From NCBI GenBank assembly GCA_964621235.1, contig CAZULR010000001.1:1058-65057 (forward strand): 64,000 nucleotides of DNA, read 5' to 3'. The DNA is from an uncultured Acidimicrobiaceae bacterium. GTDB lineage: Bacteria; Actinomycetota; Acidimicrobiia; Acidimicrobiales; RAAP-2. Position 1 is the stretch's first letter. Each line of letters starts with the position of its first letter. The notes beneath the pieces are model-generated. The model searched no databases. It saw only the letters and a program-made list of their open reading frames with translations, and was not told where the DNA came from. Both the position numbers and the translations under genes were made by a program. Shown here piece after piece: positions 12,218-21,570 of the stretch.

Positions 12218-13012
12218 TCAACGTACCCCGTCCTTCACCCGGTGACGGACGTATTGCCAGAGGGTCGGATGCAGGTAGAGGCGGCTCCCGTCCGGCAACC
12301 CCGACGCGGGGACCGGCGTCAGTTCACCGACTTCACGGAGTCGTGCGAGCTGGTCCGCCAGCACCGGGAGTCCGGCGGCCAGGTGCAGGTAGGGATAGGT
12401 GGCCACCGTGTCGGCACATGTCGGCTCGAAGGTCGCCTGGGCGAGCACGCCGCCGGTGTCGATGCCCTGGTCGACCAAGTGCACGGTCGTTCCCACCAGT
12501 TCGGGCGTGCCTTGGACGAGGGCCCAGTAGCCGCCGTGGACGCCCCGGAAGCGTGGTGTGATCCCGGCATGGGTGTTGATGATCGGGCAGTCGAGCGCAT
12601 CGAGGAGCGGGCGCGAGATGATCCGGGTTCCGTTCACCACCACGACTGACGGATGGAGCGACCGGAGGATCGTGGCGGTCTGAGGATCGTTGACGGACGG
12701 GACGTGCGTGACTCGCGGGAAGGGCGTGGCGTCCAGTCCTGACTGCTCCAGGATCACGCCGATCCGACGCCGCCCCTGCCGACGGAGGATCGGCATCGCG
12801 AGGGCGATGAAGAGGACCTGGCCCAGCACGGTGAACCACCCGACGCGTGTCGCACGTCGGCGGGCCATCGCCCAGCGCGAGGGGGGCGCTTCAACGACCA
12901 CCCGGAGATCGTCGACCCGGTGGGCAAGGTAGTTGGCCACGATGTCGGTGGTGTCGCCGGGACCCGCGAGGAGGACGACAGGACCCGTCGGGCCTCGGGA
13001 ATCACCGGGCAC
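12218..13012 (-). CDS. formyltransferase (Formyl_trans_N fold), candidate sugar N-formyltransferase
   Basis: 264 aa. VVVVNGTRIISRPLLDALDCPIINTHAGITPRFRGVHG and VHLVDQGIDTGGVL give the N/H/D catalytic pattern of formyltransferases. There is an extra hydrophobic helix near the N-terminus. Confidence 0.8.
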   Translation of the reverse strand: MPGDSRGPTGPVVLLAGPGDTTDIVANYLAHRVDDLRVVVEAPPSRWAMARRRATRVGWFTVLGQVLFIALAMPILRRQGRRRIGVILEQSGLDATPFPRVTHVPSVNDPQTATILRSLHPSVVVVNGTRIISRPLLDALDCPIINTHAGITPRFRGVHGGYWALVQGTPELVGTTVHLVDQGIDTGGVLAQATFEPTCADTVATYPYLHLAAGLPVLADQLARLREVGELTPVPASGLPDGSRLYLHPTLWQYVRHRVKDGVR

Positions 13013-13023
13013 GCGGGTTCAGC

Positions 13024-14346
13024 TCAGGTGAGTTCGCCGAAGGACGCGTGCCCGAGATCACGGCTGTTGGCGATCGCGACAGCGGCGAGTTGTGAGCGCA
13101 CCCCGAGCTTCCGGAGGACGGATCCGATGTGCGATCGGACGGTCGTCACGGAGACGACCAGTTCCTGGGCGATCCTCTGGGCGGAGCACCCCTCGGTCAG
13201 ATAGAAGAGCACGCGGCGCTCACTGATGGTCAGGCCGACCAGGGAGAGAAAACGAGGCGGGAGCGTGCAGTCGCCGGCCGCAGAGGAGTCCGCTTGCGGG
13301 CGGGAGGTCTGGCTACCCAGGGCGTCAGCCAACTGGTGCATGCCGAACACGGGTCGCGCGCCCTGGGCCACGCAGCTGGCGACGATGCCGGCCCCCGCTC
13401 CCGCGCTGACGGCGAGGACGGGGACATCGACCGCACAGTAGGAGGCGGTCAGGCGCGCGGCGATGTCCCACGGGCCCGAGGCCCACGTGGGCGTCTGGCC
13501 CGTCCAGGCTCCGTCCAGCGCAAGCACTACCTGGTCGACGGGGAACCCGTCGATGGAGCAGGTGAGTTGGTCATCCTGGGAGAAAATCAGGACCTCGGTT
13601 CGACAACCCGCCCGCTCGGCGACCCGCGCCGCTCCCGTGGCGGTCAGGCTCGGTTCGCCGGCCACCGGCGTCATGGGATCCACCACCAGGACGATCCGGG
13701 TCGGCTGATCGGCGCCCGGGGGGGCGAAGCGAGACGATCTGGCCCGCGCCGACGGCGAGTGGCTCGCCGACTTGTCCCGCAGGCGGCCGGCCTCGTAGCG
13801 GTAGACGCTTCGCCGACGAATGGTCTGGACGGGGGAGTGGCCCTGGACCGATGGCCCCCGTCTGGTCAGGGGCCGATCGACGGTGACCACCGCTCGGTGA
13901 TCACCGGTGAGGGCGTCGTGGTGGCGGTGCAGCTGCGCATGGCTGCATCGCGTCGACGTGAGGGCACTGCTGTCGACGGCCGTATGGGGAAGATGGACGT
14001 CGGGGCAGGCGATGCCGACCGAGACGGAGAGCTGGACGCCGGGAAGGTCAATGAGCGGACTCTGGTCGACGGCTCGTGCCAGCCGGTCTCCCAGGACCTG
14101 GGGAAGGGCACCGCTCGCGACCGATCCGAACTCGATGGTCATGCGCGAGGAGGCGACGGGACAGATGTGGTCTTCGGCCCGCACGGCATGCTCGATCAGC
14201 TTCTGCGCCAACTCCATCACTTCGGCACGGAGCTGGGGAGGAAGGGCCTCACCGTCCCGGGTGACCTCGATCGCCACGCACGCGACCGTGTGCGCGGCGC
14301 GCTCGCAGCTGTCGTCGGAAGGAGTCCGTTGCAATTCGTCCAGCAT
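13024..14346 (-). CDS. LuxR-family transcriptional regulator with N-terminal degenerate GGDEF-like domain
   Basis: C-terminal HTH: LTISERRVLFYLTEGCSAQRIAQELVVSVTTVRSHIGSVLRKLGV. The N-terminus has GGDEF-domain architecture (RAED-5 aa-ASSRM at the GGDEF position, later LSVSVGIA). The middle region is receiver-like (IVLVVDP, VVLALDG, VLAVSAG). Confidence 0.85.
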   Translation of the reverse strand: MLDELQRTPSDDSCERAAHTVACVAIEVTRDGEALPPQLRAEVMELAQKLIEHAVRAEDHICPVASSRMTIEFGSVASGALPQVLGDRLARAVDQSPLIDLPGVQLSVSVGIACPDVHLPHTAVDSSALTSTRCSHAQLHRHHDALTGDHRAVVTVDRPLTRRGPSVQGHSPVQTIRRRSVYRYEAGRLRDKSASHSPSARARSSRFAPPGADQPTRIVLVVDPMTPVAGEPSLTATGAARVAERAGCRTEVLIFSQDDQLTCSIDGFPVDQVVLALDGAWTGQTPTWASGPWDIAARLTASYCAVDVPVLAVSAGAGAGIVASCVAQGARPVFGMHQLADALGSQTSRPQADSSAAGDCTLPPRFLSLVGLTISERRVLFYLTEGCSAQRIAQELVVSVTTVRSHIGSVLRKLGVRSQLAAVAIANSRDLGHASFGELT

Positions 14347-14505
14347 GTTGCCCCCAAGCGCAGCCGATGACGTGCTGTTGAACTGACCTCCCCGACCATC
14401 AGCGCAGAGGCCATTCTATCGGCGGTGGGTCGATTGGCAACAGGCCCGGATCGTCGTCCGCTGAATCCCGGCAACCGCCTCACCTCAGATGCGCTGACCT
14501 GGACA

Positions 14506-15162
14506 TCACCGAGATCCTGCCCGCGCGCCCAGGAGCCGGCATTGCTGGAGTACGGCATCCAGGGTCAGGACGAATCCAGCCCCGAATGTCGCCCCCACGA
14601 GAGCGTCACTCGGGTAGTGCCAGCGGAGGCCGACCACGGCAAACCCCATCAGCACGACCACGGTCGCGCCGGCGACTACGACGACCGGAACCAGCTTGCG
14701 GGGCACGGCGAGTGCCCAAGCGGTCGCCAGTGACGCAACCACGGTCACGCTCCCCGACGGGAAGGTCAGGACGTCGACGTACCGTCGGCCCACCATCGGC
14801 TTGACGACCCATTCGACTACCGCGGAGGCGACGATCGGACCGACGAGGCAGGACACCGCCCTCCATCGGTCCCTTCCGACGACGACAACGGCGGCCAGGG
14901 CCGATCCGCCGACCAGTACGACCGTGCTACCGAGGTGGGAGATGCCGAGGAAGAGCGGTTCATGCAGGGCTGGAGGCTGGACCCGGAATCCCCAACGGTC
15001 CAGTTCGTTCGGACCGGGATACTTCCACACGGCCAGGGCGGCCACGAACGACCAGAGGAGGAGGAGCACACCGGCGAGCAATTCCCCGTGCTCCCGGAAC
15101 GGATGCGTGGCTGTCGGTGCAGCCCTTCGCCTCACGGAGTTCAAGACGACGAGGAGAACCAA
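14506..15162 (-). CDS. PAP2-superfamily phosphatase (candidate polyprenyl-diphosphate or lipid phosphatase)
   Basis: 218 aa, polytopic. The three PAP2 boxes are KPMVGRR, FPSGSV and LRWHYPSDA. Its 5' end overlaps the 3' end of the next gene by 22 nt. Confidence 0.8.
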   Translation of the reverse strand: MVLLVVLNSVRRRAAPTATHPFREHGELLAGVLLLLWSFVAALAVWKYPGPNELDRWGFRVQPPALHEPLFLGISHLGSTVVLVGGSALAAVVVVGRDRWRAVSCLVGPIVASAVVEWVVKPMVGRRYVDVLTFPSGSVTVVASLATAWALAVPRKLVPVVVVAGATVVVLMGFAVVGLRWHYPSDALVGATFGAGFVLTLDAVLQQCRLLGARAGSR

Positions 15163-16076
15163 TCGATCGTCGCGGCCAATCCATCCTCCAGGCCCACCGG
15201 TCGAGTGTCTGGAAACAGTCGCCGCAGTCGTTCGAAGTCGGCCTGTGAGTCCCGCACGTCACCCGCACGCGGTGCGGTGTGCTGCCGTTCCAGCGTGCGT
15301 CCGAGCTGCGCCTCGATAACCTCGATGAGCGTCAGCAACGACACACGGGTTCCAAATGCCAGATTGACCGGCCGATCGGAGGTCACCTGCCGGCGAGCGG
15401 CGTCACCCAGAATGGCGGTCACCGTTCCGACATAGGTGAAGTCGCGGGTCTGGAGGCCGTCACCATGCACAGGAAGCGGTTCCCCCCGCAGCGCTGCAGC
15501 CAGGAACACCGGGACGACGGCGGCGTAGGCGTGGTCCGGTGCCTGGAGCGGACCGAATACATTGAAGAACCGGAACGCGAGGACGGGCATATCGAAGGAC
15601 TTCCCGTACGCCAGCGCATAGGACTCTGCGGCCAGCTTGCTCGCAGCGTACGGACTTACCGGCATCGTCGCCATGTCCTCGTGCTTGGGCAGGGTGGGAT
15701 TGGAGCCGTAGACCGACGACGATGACGCCACGATCACCTGGGGCCGTCCGTGGCGGCGACTGGCCTCCAGCACCTCCACCGTCCCCGTGGCATTGACCAG
15801 ATGGCTGGCCATCGGGTCCTCGAGTGAGCGAGGAACGGACGGACGAGCGGCCAGGTGGATGATGGTGTCCGCGCCGGGAACGACTGCATCCAGCAGCTCC
15901 GGGTCGAGGATGGAGCCCTTGACGAACTCGACCGCATCGAGTCCCTCCAGGTTCTCGATCCTTCCGGACGAGAGGTCGTCGATGACGACCACCTCGTCGA
16001 CCGTCGGGTCCTCCAGGAGCGTGCGGCACAGATTGGCGCCGATGAACCCCGCCCCACCGGTGACCACGACGTTCAT
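15141..16076 (-). CDS. NAD-dependent SDR epimerase/dehydratase (UDP-hexose or UDP-HexNAc 4-epimerase-like)
   Basis: 311 aa. VVTGGAGFIGANL Rossmann motif and the YAASK catalytic YxxxK. Confidence 0.9.
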   Translation of the reverse strand: MNVVVTGGAGFIGANLCRTLLEDPTVDEVVVIDDLSSGRIENLEGLDAVEFVKGSILDPELLDAVVPGADTIIHLAARPSVPRSLEDPMASHLVNATGTVEVLEASRRHGRPQVIVASSSSVYGSNPTLPKHEDMATMPVSPYAASKLAAESYALAYGKSFDMPVLAFRFFNVFGPLQAPDHAYAAVVPVFLAAALRGEPLPVHGDGLQTRDFTYVGTVTAILGDAARRQVTSDRPVNLAFGTRVSLLTLIEVIEAQLGRTLERQHTAPRAGDVRDSQADFERLRRLFPDTRPVGLEDGLAATIDWFSSSS

Positions 16077-16128
16077 GAGAACCTACGGGCGCGTGCGACC
16101 GATGCCCCAGCCGACGGCTTCCGGACGG

Positions 16129-17439
16129 TCACAGCCGTTCGATGGACGGTCCGTCCAGCCGGTTGCGGGTGTCGAGGACATAGGTCGCGTGGTCGCGGAT
16201 CAGGTCGTAGTCGAACGCGTCGTGGTCGGTGACGAGAAGCACGGCATCGGCGGAGGACAGTTCGGCGGCGGTCACTTCGACCAGGGGAAAGGCGAGGGTA
16301 TCCCCGGAGAGGTGTGGATCGGCGACACGCACGGACGCGCCGAGCGCCCGTAGCGAGTGGGCGATCACGGATCCGGGTGCCTCCCGGGCGTCGCCCGTGT
16401 TCCGCTTATAGGCCATGCCGAGCACGAGGACCTGTGCACCCTTGACCGCCAGGCCCCGATCGTTGAGGCCCAGCATGAGGCGCCGCACCACATAGTCCGG
16501 CATGTGCTCGTTGACGTCGTTCGCCAGTTCGACGAATCGGAACGGCTGGCCGAGACTCCGGCGCACCTTCCAGGACAGATAGCTCGGATCGATGGGGAGG
16601 CAGTGGCCGCCCACGCCGGGTCCGGGGGTGAAGCGCAGGTAGCCGAAGGGCTTGGTCGACGCCGCGTCGATCGCCTCCCAGACGTCGATATCGAGGTCGG
16701 CGGCGAACATGGCGAGTTCGTTGACCAGTGCGATGTTGACGTGTCGGAACGTGTTCTCGAGCAGCTTCGTGAGCTCGGCCTCGCGGGTGCCAGACACCGC
16801 CACGGTGCGCTCCACCAGCCGGTCGTAGAAGCGTCGGACGGCGGCCAGTGACGGACCGTCGATACCCGAGATGACCTTCGGCGTGTTCTCCAACTGCCAC
16901 GTGGTGTTGCCCGGGTCGATCCGCTCCGGGCTGTAGCCGAGGTGGAAGTCCCGTCCGGCGGCCAGACCCGACCCTTCCTCCAGGATGGGGCCGACGAGCT
17001 CCTCGGTCGTGCCGGGATAGCTGGTCGACTCCAGCACCACCGTCGCACCGGGACGGAGGTGGTGGGCGAGGGTGGCGGCGGCGTCGGTGACGAAGCTCAG
17101 ATTCGGATTGCCGTCGTGGAGCGGCGTGGGGACGTCGATGACCGCCACGTCGAATCCGCTCATGTGCTGTGGATCGTCGGTCGGGACGAACCGACCAGAG
17201 GCGAGGGCGGCGGCAAGACGGCTGTCGGTGATGTCCTCTACATAGGAGTCTGCGTCCACCAGACGCTTGATCCGATCCACGTCGATATCGAATCCCACCA
17301 CGTCGTAGCCGACCTCGACCGCCCGCAGGGCGAGCGGGAGGCCGACATAGCCCTGACCGACGACGACGAGCTTCTCGGGCATGGAGTTCGGGCTCAACGG
17401 GTGTCCCGTCGCCGGATCACGCAGATACCTGATCGGCAC
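16129..17439 (-). CDS. nucleotide-sugar 6-dehydrogenase (UDP-glucose/GDP-mannose dehydrogenase family)
   Basis: 436 aa. VVGQGYVGLPLA NAD fold and GGHCLPIDP catalytic Cys. Alternative start ATG 17382 (MPEKLVVVG) would remove the overlap with the upstream gene. Confidence 0.9.
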   Translation of the reverse strand: MPIRYLRDPATGHPLSPNSMPEKLVVVGQGYVGLPLALRAVEVGYDVVGFDIDVDRIKRLVDADSYVEDITDSRLAAALASGRFVPTDDPQHMSGFDVAVIDVPTPLHDGNPNLSFVTDAAATLAHHLRPGATVVLESTSYPGTTEELVGPILEEGSGLAAGRDFHLGYSPERIDPGNTTWQLENTPKVISGIDGPSLAAVRRFYDRLVERTVAVSGTREAELTKLLENTFRHVNIALVNELAMFAADLDIDVWEAIDAASTKPFGYLRFTPGPGVGGHCLPIDPSYLSWKVRRSLGQPFRFVELANDVNEHMPDYVVRRLMLGLNDRGLAVKGAQVLVLGMAYKRNTGDAREAPGSVIAHSLRALGASVRVADPHLSGDTLAFPLVEVTAAELSSADAVLLVTDHDAFDYDLIRDHATYVLDTRNRLDGPSIERL

Positions 17440-19480
17440 CGGTGTCCGGCGGAACGAATTCGTCGGTCAGCGCCTCCCGGAGCTCGACGGCGTTCTGGTC
17501 CTCGGTGGGCTCGGGCCAGGAGAACTCCGGTTCGGCGACCGTGTGGACCTGGTCCCGCTCCGCTCCACCGGCGGACGCGGCGTTGAAGAGCAGGAAACGC
17601 ACGAGGTCGTTGTCGCGACTGATGGTGGCCGCCTCGAGCTTCACCAATTCGGCGGCGAAGCGGTCGCGCGGTGCCGTGATCGGCGTGAGGCGGTTGATGT
17701 ACGGGTGACTTGTGGCGGCGACCTTCTCGTCGGGAGTGCTCAGCACTTCCGCGAGCTTTTCCCCGGGCCGGATCCCCGTGATCTCGATGGGGATGTCAAT
17801 GCCGACCTGGCAGCCCGAGAGCCGGATCATCCGCTCGGCGAGATCGAGGATTCTCACCGGAGTGCCCATCTCGAGCATGAAGATCTCGCCGCCCCGGGAG
17901 AGCACCGAGGCCTGCAGCACCAGCTGGACCGACTCCTCGACGCTCATGAAGAACCGGGTCATGCGCGGATCGGTGACCGTCACCGGTCCACCGTTGGCGA
18001 TCTGGCGGGCGAAGGTCGGGATGACGCTGCCCCGGCTGCCCAGCACGTTTCCGAATCGGACGGCGCAGTAGGCCGCGCCCTCGGGACTGACGGCCAGCAC
18101 CGTCTGCTCGGCAAGTCGCTTGGAGGCACCCATGACGCTCGACGGTCGCACGGCCTTGTCGGTAGAGATCTGTACGAATCTCGTCGTACCCGTCGTCGCT
18201 GCCGCATCGACCACGTTGCGGGTACCCAGGACGTTCGTCCTGGCGGCTTCGATGGGGTGCTGTTCCAGGACGGGCACGTGTTTGTGTGCGGCGGCGTGGA
18301 ACACCACCTCCGGTCGGTACTGTTCGAACGTCTCGAAGATCGCCGGGCGGTCGGCGATGTCGACGAGCGCCTGCTCGCAGGCACCGCCGACGGTGGCCGC
18401 AGTGTCGTGCAGATGGGTCTCGTCGTGGTCGAGCAGGACGAGGAGCGAAGGCTGCATGCCTGCCACCTGCCGGCAGATTTCCGAACCGATGGAGCCACCG
18501 GCACCGGTCACGAGCACCCGTCGGCCCTCCAGGGAATGACGGACGGCTTCGAGGTCGGTGGGCACGGGAGTCCGTCCGAGGAGGTCTTCGATCTGGGGCT
18601 CGCGTGCCTGACGCAACGCGGCGAGATGCGCAGGCTCGTTGATCATGTCCTTCACCCCGGGAAGGATCTTCATCGAGATACCGGCGGCCTCCGAGGATCG
18701 GAGGGCCCGTTCGACCAGCTCGGGACCGGGTGAGGGAATCGCCAGGAGAATCTGCTGGATCGTGTATCTGCTCGCCGATTCGGGGATCTCGGCGATCGTG
18801 CCCACGACCGGCACGCCGAGCAGGGAGAGTCCGTGGGCCCGGGGGTCGTCATCGAACACCGCAACAGGGACGAGCCCGGCGCCCGGGCTCCGGAGCATCT
18901 CGCGGATCGCCGCGGCTCCGGTGTCCCGGCTCCCGATCACCGCAACACGGAGTCCGAGGCGCTTCGAGCCCCGTTGCCAGGCGAACAGGCGTGAGTGGAA
19001 CCGCAGGACCCCCATGCCCGTTGCGGCGAACATGCATCCGACGCCGACGACGATGGGCGGCACGAGTTCGATCCGCAGCGTCCGACCCACGGGCCAGAAG
19101 GCGATGAGGACACAGAGCGTCACCGCCGTCGAGAGGGTCAGCTGACGGGCTTCGTCGGCTCCAGCGTGTCGCCACATGCGTCCGTAGAGACCGAAGATGC
19201 GGTTGCACACGAGGGTGACGATGATGGCCACGATCAGGAAACCCAAGAAGTGCTCCCAGTAGTGGGCCGGGGCACGATCACGGAAGTAGGCGACCTCGGC
19301 GAGGCCGTACCCGGCGACCACGCACACCACATCCAGCACGACGAACAGGATGACCGCCCGGACCCGGCTGGCCATGACGGCGAATTGCCAGCTCGCGGGG
19401 CTACCCTCGGCGGCCTGCGACGGCTCCCCGTGTTCTTTGGATACGTCCACTACGTCTGCCCCCTCCATCCGACGCCCCAA
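17417..19480 (-). CDS. membrane-bound NDP-sugar 4,6-dehydratase (CapD/PglF/WbpM family)
   Basis: 687 aa. Four N-terminal helices, then VAVIGSRDTGAA and VLVTGAGGSIGSEICRQV Rossmann motifs. An acidic C-terminal extension follows. Confidence 0.9.
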   Translation of the reverse strand: MGRRMEGADVVDVSKEHGEPSQAAEGSPASWQFAVMASRVRAVILFVVLDVVCVVAGYGLAEVAYFRDRAPAHYWEHFLGFLIVAIIVTLVCNRIFGLYGRMWRHAGADEARQLTLSTAVTLCVLIAFWPVGRTLRIELVPPIVVGVGCMFAATGMGVLRFHSRLFAWQRGSKRLGLRVAVIGSRDTGAAAIREMLRSPGAGLVPVAVFDDDPRAHGLSLLGVPVVGTIAEIPESASRYTIQQILLAIPSPGPELVERALRSSEAAGISMKILPGVKDMINEPAHLAALRQAREPQIEDLLGRTPVPTDLEAVRHSLEGRRVLVTGAGGSIGSEICRQVAGMQPSLLVLLDHDETHLHDTAATVGGACEQALVDIADRPAIFETFEQYRPEVVFHAAAHKHVPVLEQHPIEAARTNVLGTRNVVDAAATTGTTRFVQISTDKAVRPSSVMGASKRLAEQTVLAVSPEGAAYCAVRFGNVLGSRGSVIPTFARQIANGGPVTVTDPRMTRFFMSVEESVQLVLQASVLSRGGEIFMLEMGTPVRILDLAERMIRLSGCQVGIDIPIEITGIRPGEKLAEVLSTPDEKVAATSHPYINRLTPITAPRDRFAAELVKLEAATISRDNDLVRFLLFNAASAGGAERDQVHTVAEPEFSWPEPTEDQNAVELREALTDEFVPPDTGADQVSA

Positions 19481-19914
19481 ACAAACGACCGACCTGAGGG
19501 TGAGCCAGGGATCTCCCCAGATAGCTGGCCCAAGGTCCCTTGGACAGGTGTACGCACACGAAACCTCGGAGCACTCCAGTCGGACTGCGGCAAGGCTACC
19601 TCACCCGGCCTGGGCCAGCATCCTCAATCTTGGGGAGATTGACCGACGGTTTCGACGTCGCCGCGGCGTCGGAGGAGGCACCGGAGCCCGACGTCGAGAA
19701 CTCGGTGGCCAGGTTCGTTGCCGAACTCGTCGTCCGGCGAAACAGCGACTCCGGATTGCCCCGTGCCTCCCGCCCACCCCAGTCAGCCACGGAATTCGGC
19801 AACTGCAGTCGCGGACGGCACCGAGCCGGCCCGGTCAACTGCCGACAGTGACCAGCCGGCCACGTACGAGGACCACTAGCCGTTGGGGGAAGAAACACCC
19901 GCCGATCAGGTAAG

Positions 19915-21570
19915 ATGCTGGCCCGGTCGTCGAGGCAGGACAGGGGCATGATCGAACGCATCAACTATTGGGGACCATTGCGTCGGGGCTGGCGCCTGCT
20001 TGTCGCGCTCGCGATCGTCTTTGCGGTGGTCGCCGTGCTCCTTCCCCAGTCGAAGAGTCCGAAGGTCGTCCAGAACAAGTATGACTGGCGGGCCGCTTCC
20101 TATGTGGCGGCGCTCTCGACCGATGGCATCGCATCGGCCGGTGTCACCTCGCACACCATTCTCTTCTGGGCCAACAACTTCTACACCAAGAGCGCAGCGA
20201 TTGTCGCTGCCGGGCAGGCGTCCGAGGCGGACCAGCTGCTTCAGCACATGAAGGCTTCGACGGTCGGCTTCACTGTCGTCACGCACAAGTTGAAAACCAA
20301 GGCGAAGAAGGCCACCACGAGCACGACCACGAAGGCGGGATCGCAGAGTTCCCAGTACGTGCAGCTGTTGGTCGGTGGGTCGAGTGTGGACAATGCCGTC
20401 AAGCTGGCCAATGCGTATGCCACGGCGACCGAGAACGCGGTCAACAAGGCATATGCGGACTATCTGGCCGGCCTGTCAAAGCAACAGTTGACGGTCAAAC
20501 CCAGTGCGACGAGTGGGTTGGTGCTCGTCGCTCCTGCCATAAACAGTCATGCCGCGAAAGTGGTCGCGAAGGCCCCGAAGAGCTCGCAGCTGGGGCGCAA
20601 GGAACGCGGTCTCATCGGCCTGGGCGTCGGATTGGTGCTCGGTGCGCTGATCATCCTGGTGCGAGAGTTGTTGAATCGGACCCTGCAGACCACGGCGGGT
20701 ACCGAAGCGTCGTTCCTCTACCCGGTCATCGCTGAAGTACCCGAGCATGAGGGAAGTGGTGGCCACCAACCGGCAACCGTCTTGGCGGTCGTCGACGATC
20801 CGGTATCCCCGGCCGCCGAGGCGTATCGCATGCTCCGAATGTCGCTCCTCTTCGAGGGCCTTGCCGACGTGACGACGTACGACGACCCGTACGGTGCGGC
20901 GATGGCCGGCGGGCCACCAGCAGCGAGGGGTACCTACCAGCCTCCGGATCCTGGCAGCCGACAGGTGGTCCTGGTCGTGTCGCCGGGACAAGAGGCGTCC
21001 CGACCGATTCTGACGGCGAATCTCGCTGCGGCCTACGCCGAGGCTGGTGAGCGGGTGATCGTGATCAGCACCCGCGACATCGATTCGGGGCGCGCGACGG
21101 GCCTTGCCGGGTCACGAACCGCCCGAGTGGAGAAGGAGGACGTGGTGGCGAGACTCGAGCCCGCCAACCTCGAGGGCGTCTCCCGACTGTCGCTTCGACC
21201 CTTCATCGCCAGTGGCGGGCAACTGGCGACCCGTGCACCGGACATCCTCGCCATCGTGCGCCAACTGACTGACGTCGTGATCATCGAGACGCCGCCGCTC
21301 CTGGCTGTCCACCACGGTGAGGCATTGATCCATTCGGTCGATGTGGTGGTCGTGGTGGCCGAAGCACGCACGACCCCGATCGCCCACGCCCAGCGGGCCG
21401 GCGAGATCCTTCGCCGGATGGGTGCGCCCGTCCTCGGGGTGGCACTCACCAACGTTCGGCTCTCTCCTCGCGACGTTCGCAAGACGTCCGAACCCCCTGG
21501 ATCGATTGCCTCGCCGGAACTGGAGCCCGCCGGACCGATGGAATCGATCGGGGAAGCCACCTCGGCGTAG
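19915..21570 (+). CDS. polysaccharide co-polymerase (Wzz/PCP-2-like) fused to a degenerate BY-kinase-like P-loop domain
   Basis: 551 aa. Two helices flank a roughly 200-aa loop. The C-terminal domain aligns by eye with CpsD/Wzc kinases, but Walker A reads SPGQEASRP (20980-21006) instead of PGEGKST. Walker B-like DVVIIETPP. No C-terminal Tyr cluster. Alternative start ATG 19948. Confidence 0.75.
   Translation: MLARSSRQDRGMIERINYWGPLRRGWRLLVALAIVFAVVAVLLPQSKSPKVVQNKYDWRAASYVAALSTDGIASAGVTSHTILFWANNFYTKSAAIVAAGQASEADQLLQHMKASTVGFTVVTHKLKTKAKKATTSTTTKAGSQSSQYVQLLVGGSSVDNAVKLANAYATATENAVNKAYADYLAGLSKQQLTVKPSATSGLVLVAPAINSHAAKVVAKAPKSSQLGRKERGLIGLGVGLVLGALIILVRELLNRTLQTTAGTEASFLYPVIAEVPEHEGSGGHQPATVLAVVDDPVSPAAEAYRMLRMSLLFEGLADVTTYDDPYGAAMAGGPPAARGTYQPPDPGSRQVVLVVSPGQEASRPILTANLAAAYAEAGERVIVISTRDIDSGRATGLAGSRTARVEKEDVVARLEPANLEGVSRLSLRPFIASGGQLATRAPDILAIVRQLTDVVIIETPPLLAVHHGEALIHSVDVVVVVAEARTTPIAHAQRAGEILRRMGAPVLGVALTNVRLSPRDVRKTSEPPGSIASPELEPAGPMESIGEATSA

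Follow-up and report, generated by a model that had tools for sequence, protein, structure and literature searches.

A candidate c-di-GMP-sensing LuxR-type regulator with a dead GGDEF domain in a polysaccharide locus of uncultured Acidimicrobiales

The window analysed here, a DNA stretch of 64,000 nt from an uncultured Acidimicrobiaceae bacterium, is according to Pfam and NCBIfam a large polysaccharide locus, which agrees with the context assigned to it by the first-pass annotation, a model's reading of the bare sequence. It contains a regulator gene whose product combines a divergent, catalytically dead GGDEF domain, a pseudo-receiver and a LuxR-type helix-turn-helix (HTH). The domain has lost its catalytic residues and keeps all three residues of the primary inhibitory site (I-site), and on balance its sequence favours binding of cyclic di-GMP (c-di-GMP) by the regulator. 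The gene belongs to a conserved operon of envelope-polysaccharide enzymes, upstream of which lies an 18-bp near-palindrome, the putative operator of the regulator.

Regulator gene and protein family

13024..14346, minus strand: regulator gene, 440 amino acids, dead GGDEF domain plus pseudo-receiver plus LuxR HTH (open reading frame, translation, AlphaFold2 model)

The codon bias of this reading frame matches that of the real genes in the window, and its start is common to the homologues. The family comprises 243 homologues, of which the top scorers are full-length (~440 amino acids) and mostly share 40-50% identity; many of them carry only the annotation "CsgD/NarL family". According to Pfam and NCBIfam, the whole 440-amino-acid protein contains the GerE HTH only (residues 372-426, PF00196, E value 8e-12), and a GGDEF domain is not detected by these libraries even at E<=10. 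The GGDEF domain proposed by the first-pass annotation thus needed stronger tests, and the structure and profile comparisons given below overturned the reading "no GGDEF domain" that Pfam and NCBIfam alone would give.

The N-terminal domain

13867..14289, minus strand: divergent, catalytically dead GGDEF domain, residues ~18-160 (Foldseek, hhalign, hmmsearch)

The N-terminal domain of the regulator is a GGDEF domain. The AlphaFold2 (AF2) model of residues 1-165, built on 103 sequences, has a predicted local distance difference test (pLDDT) of 84.5 and a predicted template-modelling score (pTM) of 0.79, and its elements follow the order beta1, helix, beta2-beta3 hairpin, helix, beta4, helix, beta5. 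The top 50 Foldseek matches of this model in the PDB are all GGDEF domains, including those of PleD, WspR, DosC, YfiN, and DgcB, with E values from 3e-6 to 1e-3 and a probability of 1.0. Their template-modelling (TM) scores range from 0.5 to 0.6 at a sequence identity of 10-18%.

Profile searches point the same way. The N-terminal family profile matches the GGDEF chain 3icl_A in the PDB (E value 0.006) and SadC (0.2), and a comparison by hhalign with nine GGDEF domains encoded in the same genome gives a probability of 88.6% and an E value of 2.6e-6. A domain profile built from the window and the locus DNA was also run by hmmsearch against 1.84 billion representative proteins. At E<=1e-10 this search returns the regulator family itself as 99 clusters, beyond which come multidomain PAS/GAF/EAL/REC proteins with E values between 1.8e-9 and 1e-6; the match falls inside PF00990 in 10/10 of the non-family proteins checked. 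Model, family profile, hhalign, and hmmsearch all support the GGDEF architecture claimed earlier for the N-terminal ~130 amino acids, for which profile comparison and structure prediction had been suggested as a check. The LSVSVGIA strand reported near the end of the domain is located by translation at residues 106-113.

Active site and I-site

14140..14154, minus strand: ASSRM (residues 65-69), degenerate active site in the GG(D/E)EF slot, on the beta2-beta3 hairpin of the AF2 model (alignment)
14170..14181, minus strand: RAED (R56-D59), RxxD motif of the primary I-site (conservation and alignment)
14083..14085, minus strand: codon of R88, equivalent of PleD R390 and third primary I-site residue (conservation and alignment)

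Residues were mapped by aligning 63 true GGDEF domains onto the regulator-family profile with hmmalign. Positions A65, S66, S67, R68, and M69 fall on the signature itself, aligning with G in 54, G in 49, D in 48, E in 53, and F in 54 of the 63 domains, and P63 takes the place of the Arg that precedes GGDEF in 56 of them. S109 and G111 align with S and G of the "SiG" motif. As for the I-site, which consists of RxxD and a further arginine (R359, D362, and R390 in PleD; PMC7288161), R56 aligns with R in 56/63 domains, D59 with D in 61/63, and R88 with R in 57/63. The first two also align in 3icl_A, and the last one with the conserved R of the GGDEF domains from the same genome. The RxxD motif lies exactly five residues upstream of the ASSRM slot. 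Translation of codons 14140-14181 gives R56-A-E-D-H-I-C-P-V-A-S-S-R-M69, so the RAED-HICPV-ASSRM reading of the first-pass annotation holds, as do its placement of RAED at the canonical I-site position and of ASSRM in the slot of GG(D/E)EF.

Conservation was computed for two sets, 103 aligned relatives and 91 further representatives of 50% clusters. R56 is kept in 102/103 and 91/91 sequences, respectively, and D59 and R88 both in 103/103 and 91/91, followed by C62 (103/103 and 88/91) and P63 (103/103 and 61/91). Across the ~195 relatives, conservation within the domain is highest at R56, D59, and R88. The family consensus of the GGDEF slot is [G/S/A]-T-S-[R/S/L]-[V/L/I], with an acidic residue in none of its positions; the guanine-binding stretch after beta1 (the N/D loop of cyclases) is short and variable, and the acidic residue of beta1 has decayed. 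The regulator lacks what a diguanylate cyclase requires, namely the acidic residues of GG(D/E)EF, the preceding Arg, and the N/D loop, and to judge by the alignments the whole family has a dead active site. Since the triad is invariant and the catalytic positions (GGDEF slot, preceding Arg, beta1 acidic residue) are not preserved, selection appears to act on the I-site only. Lost catalytic residues together with an invariant I-site triad are what a receptor would look like in sequence.

C-terminal half of the protein

13792..13818, minus strand: extra beta-strand with H-R-R-x-V-x-R-Y, residues 177-185 (AF2 model)
13303..13698, minus strand: REC-fold pseudo-receiver, residues 217-348, (beta-alpha)5 (AF2 and Foldseek)
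13069..13257, minus strand: LuxR/GerE HTH, residues 364-426 (PF00196; profile matches in the PDB: VraR, GerE, NarL)

The full-length AF2 model has a pLDDT of 80.9 and a pTM of 0.81. In this model the GGDEF domain is followed by an extra strand, which belongs to a beta-hairpin, and by a disordered linker (residues 188-212). Among 50 family sequences, the number that also underlies the receiver-pocket counts below, the arginines of the strand are kept in 50/50 (R179), 40/50 (R178), and 43/50 (R183) cases, and the strand is a candidate for the secondary contact of a nucleotide dimer.

Foldseek aligns residues ~215-430 with the whole chains of RcsB, EvgA, ChrA, NarL, FixJ, VpsT, and LiaR over ~220-240 columns. 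The receiver-like region that had been placed between the GGDEF-like domain and the HTH is thereby recovered as part of a complete NarL/FixJ-type regulator, and the LuxR HTH itself, also named by the first-pass annotation, is the domain that Pfam detects. The HTH is nearly invariant across the family, with ~30 invariant columns. In the receiver pocket, D223 is found in 47/50 sequences and S314 in 42/50, and position 278 carries D (34 sequences), E (12), or Gly/Pro (4). The pocket has a single acidic residue at beta1 (D223) and lacks the conserved Lys after beta5, and Pfam does not detect Response_reg even at E<=10. Because the phosphorylation pocket is incomplete, the middle domain is regarded as a pseudo-receiver, and the reading of the protein as a canonical phosphorylated response regulator was rejected.

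Two other known modes of c-di-GMP binding were also rejected: the W[F/L/M][T/S]R motif of VpsT occurs in 0/50 family members, and the RxD-x8-RxxD motif of BldD is absent from the protein. From beta4 to alpha4 (residues 306-348, window 13303-13430) the pseudo-receiver has a near-invariant Gly/Ala-rich stretch, V-S-A-G-A-G-A-G-A-x-A-S-C-V-A-Q-G-A, which is unusual for receivers and may serve as a tight helix-packing or dimer interface, or as a phosphate-binding loop.

Gene neighbourhood

17417..19480, minus strand: WbpM/PseB-like membrane 4,6-dehydratase (Pfam/NCBIfam), upstream of the regulator gene in 67/80 loci
16129..17439, minus strand: UDP-sugar 6-dehydrogenase (Pfam/NCBIfam), upstream in 72/80 loci
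15141..16076, minus strand: short-chain dehydrogenase/reductase (SDR) epimerase (Pfam/NCBIfam), upstream in 74/80 loci
14506..15162, minus strand: PAP2 phosphatase (Pfam/NCBIfam), upstream in 52/80 loci

Synteny was assessed in 80 loci from different species. The genes for dehydratase, dehydrogenase, epimerase, and PAP2 phosphatase (block 14506..19480) immediately precede the regulator gene, in this order and on the same strand, and a divergent gene pair follows beyond the dehydratase in 61/80 loci. The genes after the regulator vary, a formyltransferase being present there in only 18 loci. Because the upstream order is kept while the downstream genes vary, the regulator gene is taken as the last conserved member of the core operon. 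It encodes the sole DNA-binding protein of the conserved gene core. The first-pass annotation described the regulator as controlling an island; the polysaccharide genes alongside it are indeed present, whereas a mobile or variable island is at odds with an operon whose core is shared by 67-74 of 80 species.

As for the signal, the source genome has at least 16 GGDEF-domain matches, so c-di-GMP should be available to the regulator.

In the window, the divergent gene at 19915-21570 (plus strand) encodes a protein of 551 amino acids with a C-terminal domain like that of Wzc/BY-kinase ATPases, scoring 42 bits against a cut-off of 108. The formyltransferase gene lies 11 nt downstream of the regulator gene (window 13012-13024).

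Candidate operator and promoters

19620..19637, no strand assigned: operator-like 18-bp near-palindrome, 140 nt upstream of the WbpM-like gene; single match in the window, 0.01 expected
19593..19598, minus strand: -10-like hexamer TAGCCT (TAnnnT), 30 nt downstream of the palindrome centre
14413..14440, minus strand: sigma-70-like promoter TTGCCA-16-TAGAAT, 67 nt before the regulator ATG; 10/12 matches versus 0.1 expected

A shared-word search of the divergent intergenic regions returned the 18-bp near-palindrome ATCCYCAAT/ATTGRGGAT (consensus ATCCTCAATATTGAGGAT), which also has a longer AT-rich form, AATCCYCAAT/ATTGRGGATG. This box occurs exactly once in 48/51 divergent intergenic regions. When a degenerate pattern with at most 1 mismatch is searched in the loci (1.54 Mb), the box is found in 59/80 of them, one per locus, and the reversed pattern used as control has 0 matches. 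In loci with the conserved gene order, the box immediately precedes the dehydratase gene and shares its orientation. The first-pass annotation proposed four promoter regions for the regulator, among which 19481-19914 carries the conserved box and the other three do not.

At the genome level, 1-5 box sites are found in each genome (at most 1 mismatch). In the order sample (n=201), a match is present in 7/8 regulator-positive versus 49/193 regulator-negative genomes, a co-occurrence that is only indicative, given that the genomes are related and that 20 candidates per genome were scored. The matches in regulator-negative genomes were considered noise: they lie mostly in coding sequence or unrelated contexts, and their rate is near that of the reversed pattern. 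For this reason the one-mismatch pattern is too unspecific to define a genome-wide regulon. An extra match in the source genome (G000:C98:5491) was not counted, having no -10-like element at the right spacing.

Downstream of the box, a TAnnnT hexamer (TAGAGT, TAGTGT, or TAGGGT in other loci) starts 20 or 21 nt away in 49/56 loci, and any other offset is seen in at most 2. The dyad centre lies 30-31 nt upstream of TAnnnT, and with this fixed spacing it falls near -42 of the predicted start. Neither a TTGACA-like -35 nor a canonical -35/-10 pair is found in the box promoter regions; TTGAGG inside the box was rejected as a -35 element, being 23 nt from the -10-like hexamer and thus too far. The palindrome could also be read as an RNA hairpin, but covariation between positions 5 and 14 is not clean (T15/C33 versus A32/G16), and a DNA site is therefore preferred.

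In LuxR/TraR class II activation, an 18-20-bp dyad (lux box, tra box) centred near -42 replaces the -35 element and is bound by a dimer of GerE-type HTHs. These activators share the putative box geometry of the regulator and sense acyl-homoserine lactones by an N-terminal autoinducer-binding domain. The regulator is the obvious candidate for binding the box, since the core encodes no other DNA-binding protein and the near-invariant HTH has its counterpart in a near-invariant half-site. Judged on conservation and placement, the regulator probably binds the box, and the position of the box suggests activation of the operon and autoregulation.

Alternatively, the box may be bound by another factor, or be an RNA or promoter element, with the regulator acting on other targets. 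The link between protein and site is indirect, and the right half of the box, TTGRGGATG, is conserved far better than the left one, as might be seen in such a case. A second dyad, CTCATCA-AAGA-TGATGAG, also immediately precedes the regulator gene in ~17 of 65 related loci (L001-L066, after the PAP2 or epimerase gene); it might be recognised by another factor or serve autoregulation. Against this, the box is found more often in genomes that have the regulator, it stays near the regulator gene in a distant clade whose neighbouring genes differ, and its 18-bp dyad, predicted to lie near -42, has the classic geometry of LuxR/TraR activators; nor does the conserved core encode any other DNA-binding protein. 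This alternative is therefore held to be somewhat unlikely, and the regulator is retained as the predicted box-binding protein.

The distant clade has another gene order, and there the box, TTTCCTCAATnnTGRGGATG, precedes genes for signal-peptide proteins a few kb from the regulator gene, a context that suggests a different or wider regulon. Its sites are the following:

L065:5272, L069:3879, L070:7493, L080:4685; L106:10013, L107:5574: box sites of the distant clade

The second dyad is absent from window 14347-14505, upstream of the regulator gene. The sigma-70-like promoter found in that region (14413-14440) is possibly the own basal promoter of the gene; the same hexamers occur in L043 and L053, and the same or similar ones in ~9 of the 65 related loci.

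Comparison with known c-di-GMP systems

PssE (Listeria monocytogenes), YdaK (Bacillus subtilis), and PelD (Pseudomonas aeruginosa) resemble the regulator in that their GGDEF domain is dead and has RxxD five residues ahead of the degenerate signature, and in being encoded within the polysaccharide operon that they control (PMC4125290; PMC5422440; PMC7288161). PssE, a proven receptor, has DKDDA instead of GGDEF and RxxD five residues upstream, and its gene is the last of the pss operon (PMC4125290), just as the regulator gene is the last conserved one of its own. YdaK, likewise a proven receptor, has SDERI in the same slot, and its function is abolished by R202A or D205A (PMC5422440). Unlike the regulator, however, these three proteins are membrane-associated, activate a synthase post-translationally, and have no DNA-binding domain, whereas the LuxR HTH of the regulator predicts transcriptional control. 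The GGDEF domain of the regulator has also diverged beyond Pfam detection.

The C-terminal half is comparable to VpsT (Vibrio cholerae) and other CsgD-type proteins, which likewise consist of a REC-fold pseudo-receiver and a LuxR HTH; VpsT is found among both the Foldseek (3klo, 3kln) and the sequence matches. VpsT, which acts without phosphorylation, is an activator of polysaccharide genes and has a c-di-GMP dimer as its ligand. It binds this ligand, however, via W[F/L/M][T/S]R on a receiver extension and has no GGDEF domain, and this motif is missing from the regulator.

A receiver fold combined with a GGDEF domain that has an I-site is known from PopA and PleD (Caulobacter) and from WspR, in which (c-di-GMP)2 bound at RxxD and R390 cross-links domains or subunits (PMC12564702; PMC7288161). 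The GGDEF domain of PopA is degenerate and has a receptor role only (PMC12564702). In these proteins REC precedes GGDEF, there is no HTH, and the output is localisation or enzyme inhibition, whereas in the regulator the GGDEF domain comes first, followed by REC and HTH. PdeL (YahA, Escherichia coli) shares with the regulator the fusion of a LuxR-type HTH to a domain of c-di-GMP metabolism, and transcription by PdeL responds to c-di-GMP (PMC12564702). In contrast, PdeL is a trigger enzyme with an active EAL phosphodiesterase and an N-terminal HTH, and the regulator has the I-site of a dead GGDEF domain and a C-terminal HTH. In the SgmT/DigR system of Myxococcus xanthus, a GGDEF domain without the catalytic motif reportedly serves as an I-site receptor for c-di-GMP, and a DNA-binding regulator of extracellular-matrix genes stands at the end of the pathway (PMC3509222). 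The receptor domain of SgmT is part of a histidine kinase and DNA is bound by a separate protein, whereas the regulator has both in one polypeptide.

The effector reviews and full-text literature searched list FleQ/FlrA, VpsT, VpsR, LtmA, HpoR, DevR, Clp, BldD, BrlR, MrkH, and PdeL as c-di-GMP-responsive regulators, and PelD, PopA, PssE, YdaK, and SgmT as GGDEF I-site receptors. No example of a GGDEF I-site joined directly to a DNA-binding domain was found among the c-di-GMP effectors in these sources, which fits the remark of the first-pass annotation that the architecture was not one recognised as characterised. The family could thus, though we say so tentatively, be the first transcription factors that sense c-di-GMP via a dead-GGDEF I-site fused to a DNA-binding domain, with an intercalated ligand dimer locking the GGDEF-like domain to the pseudo-receiver or a second subunit and so switching on a lux-box-like class II promoter of a conserved envelope-polysaccharide operon. 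With the same reservation, it might also provide the first c-di-GMP effector and regulon of uncultured soil Acidimicrobiales.

Proposed mechanism and its alternatives

According to the mechanism we propose, the regulator would be a one-component transcription factor whose dead GGDEF domain keeps a complete primary I-site (R56-x-x-D59 and R88). When c-di-GMP rises, made by some of the GGDEF enzymes of the genome, an intercalated c-di-GMP dimer would occupy this site. The ligand would then bridge to a second Arg surface as it does in PleD, WspR, and PopA, the surface being strand 177-185, the pseudo-receiver, or a second subunit. Such bridging would fix the dimer, so that the paired LuxR HTHs could bind ATCCYCAAT/ATTGRGGAT ~42 nt upstream of the operon start. 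From this class II position, at a promoter without a proper -35, the dimer would activate the operon of the WbpM-like dehydratase, UDP-sugar dehydrogenase, epimerase, PAP2 phosphatase, and the regulator, including its own gene. As an outcome, c-di-GMP would be coupled to envelope polysaccharide production. The whole chain, from I-site binding to operon activation, is plausible but falls just short of probable in our judgement: we infer c-di-GMP binding, ligand-driven dimerisation, the presence of the regulator at the box, and the sign of its effect.

Several observations speak against this mechanism. The window has no diguanylate cyclase gene, and all known hosts of the family are uncultured. 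Compared with true GGDEF domains, the N-terminal domain lacks helix alpha0 and some of the alpha1/alpha2 region, and the I-site pocket could be changed as a result. RxxD and an R390-type Arg are widespread in GGDEF domains and could serve a salt bridge or a domain interface instead. Regarding the box, the copy in the window has 2 mismatches to the palindrome consensus, the left half is degenerate in many loci, and the much better conserved right half could partly be a promoter element; the kinship of the genomes and the number of candidates scored reduce the weight of the co-occurrence counts.

As regards the ligand, the dead GGDEF domain may bind none and act as a dimerisation or interaction module, with R56, D59, and R88 kept as salt bridges or pseudo-receiver contacts and control exerted by expression level or by a partner, e.g., an active cyclase of the kind seen in trigger complexes. 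GGDEF domains naturally act as dimerisation modules, the full-length model shows a compact multi-domain arrangement (pTM 0.81) with extensive interdomain contacts, and for the secondary I-site residue there are candidates only. To our knowledge, however, degenerate GGDEF proteins that do not bind c-di-GMP, such as LapD, FimX, and GdpP, generally have no RxxD. The three strictly invariant residues are, moreover, exactly the three c-di-GMP contacts of PleD-type I-sites (PMC7288161), whereas the hydrophobic core varies. A ligand-free module is thus considered unlikely compared with c-di-GMP binding.

Still less probable is a pocket for another guanine nucleotide or dinucleotide, e.g., (p)ppGpp, GTP, pGpG, or cGAMP, or perhaps for a nucleotide sugar made by the operon enzymes. 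This option fits the strong divergence of the domain, 10-18% identical to solved GGDEF domains and shortened between beta1 and beta2, the presence of a PleD structure with pppGpp among the PDB matches (9g86), and the position of the regulator gene among genes for nucleotide-sugar enzymes. On the other hand, the A-site, which is the GTP site, is destroyed (no GG, no acidic residues, P63 for Arg, N/D guanine loop missing), and the known ligands of RxxD sites are all c-di-GMP dimers (PMC7288161; PMC4125290; PMC5422440). Finally, an ordinary NarL-type response regulator, phosphorylated at D278 by an unlinked histidine kinase and with the N-terminal domain as an accessory, would fit the REC fold with GerE HTH, the acidic residue ending beta3 in 46/50 sequences, and S314, but is highly improbable given the missing Response_reg match, the Glu (12/50) or Gly/Pro (4/50) at position 278, the one acidic residue of beta1, the absent beta5 Lys, and the fact that a kinase gene was not found among the genes examined in the conserved core.

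For c-di-GMP sensing, the interest of the regulator comes mainly from its direct testability: one protein, three I-site residues (R56, D59, R88), and one 18-bp candidate operator with a defined geometry. If the proposed mechanism is true, a cyclase domain has been recycled as the sensor of a one-component regulator, and the level of a second messenger is tied to the production of an envelope glycan, which is probably sulfated and methylated. The family is also invisible to domain censuses based on Pfam, so effectors of this kind are under-counted.

Occurrence of the family

The family is found in uncultured Acidimicrobiales/Acidimicrobiaceae only, in ~140 species-level genomes from soil, peat, and permafrost. 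Its hosts thus belong to an abundant uncultured soil and peat group without a known c-di-GMP effector. The distribution across the order is patchy, with the regulator present in 8/201 sampled genomes, and the gene is single-copy. The source genome is a metagenome-assembled genome of 3.4 Mb and 68% completeness, while the 4 other sampled genomes of its GTDB family have 1.7-2.2 Mb and no regulator; either this GTDB family is heterogeneous or the placement of the bin is worth checking. One database protein (P0099, 703 amino acids) is called as a fusion of the regulator with the formyltransferase and is probably a read-through or gene-calling artefact.

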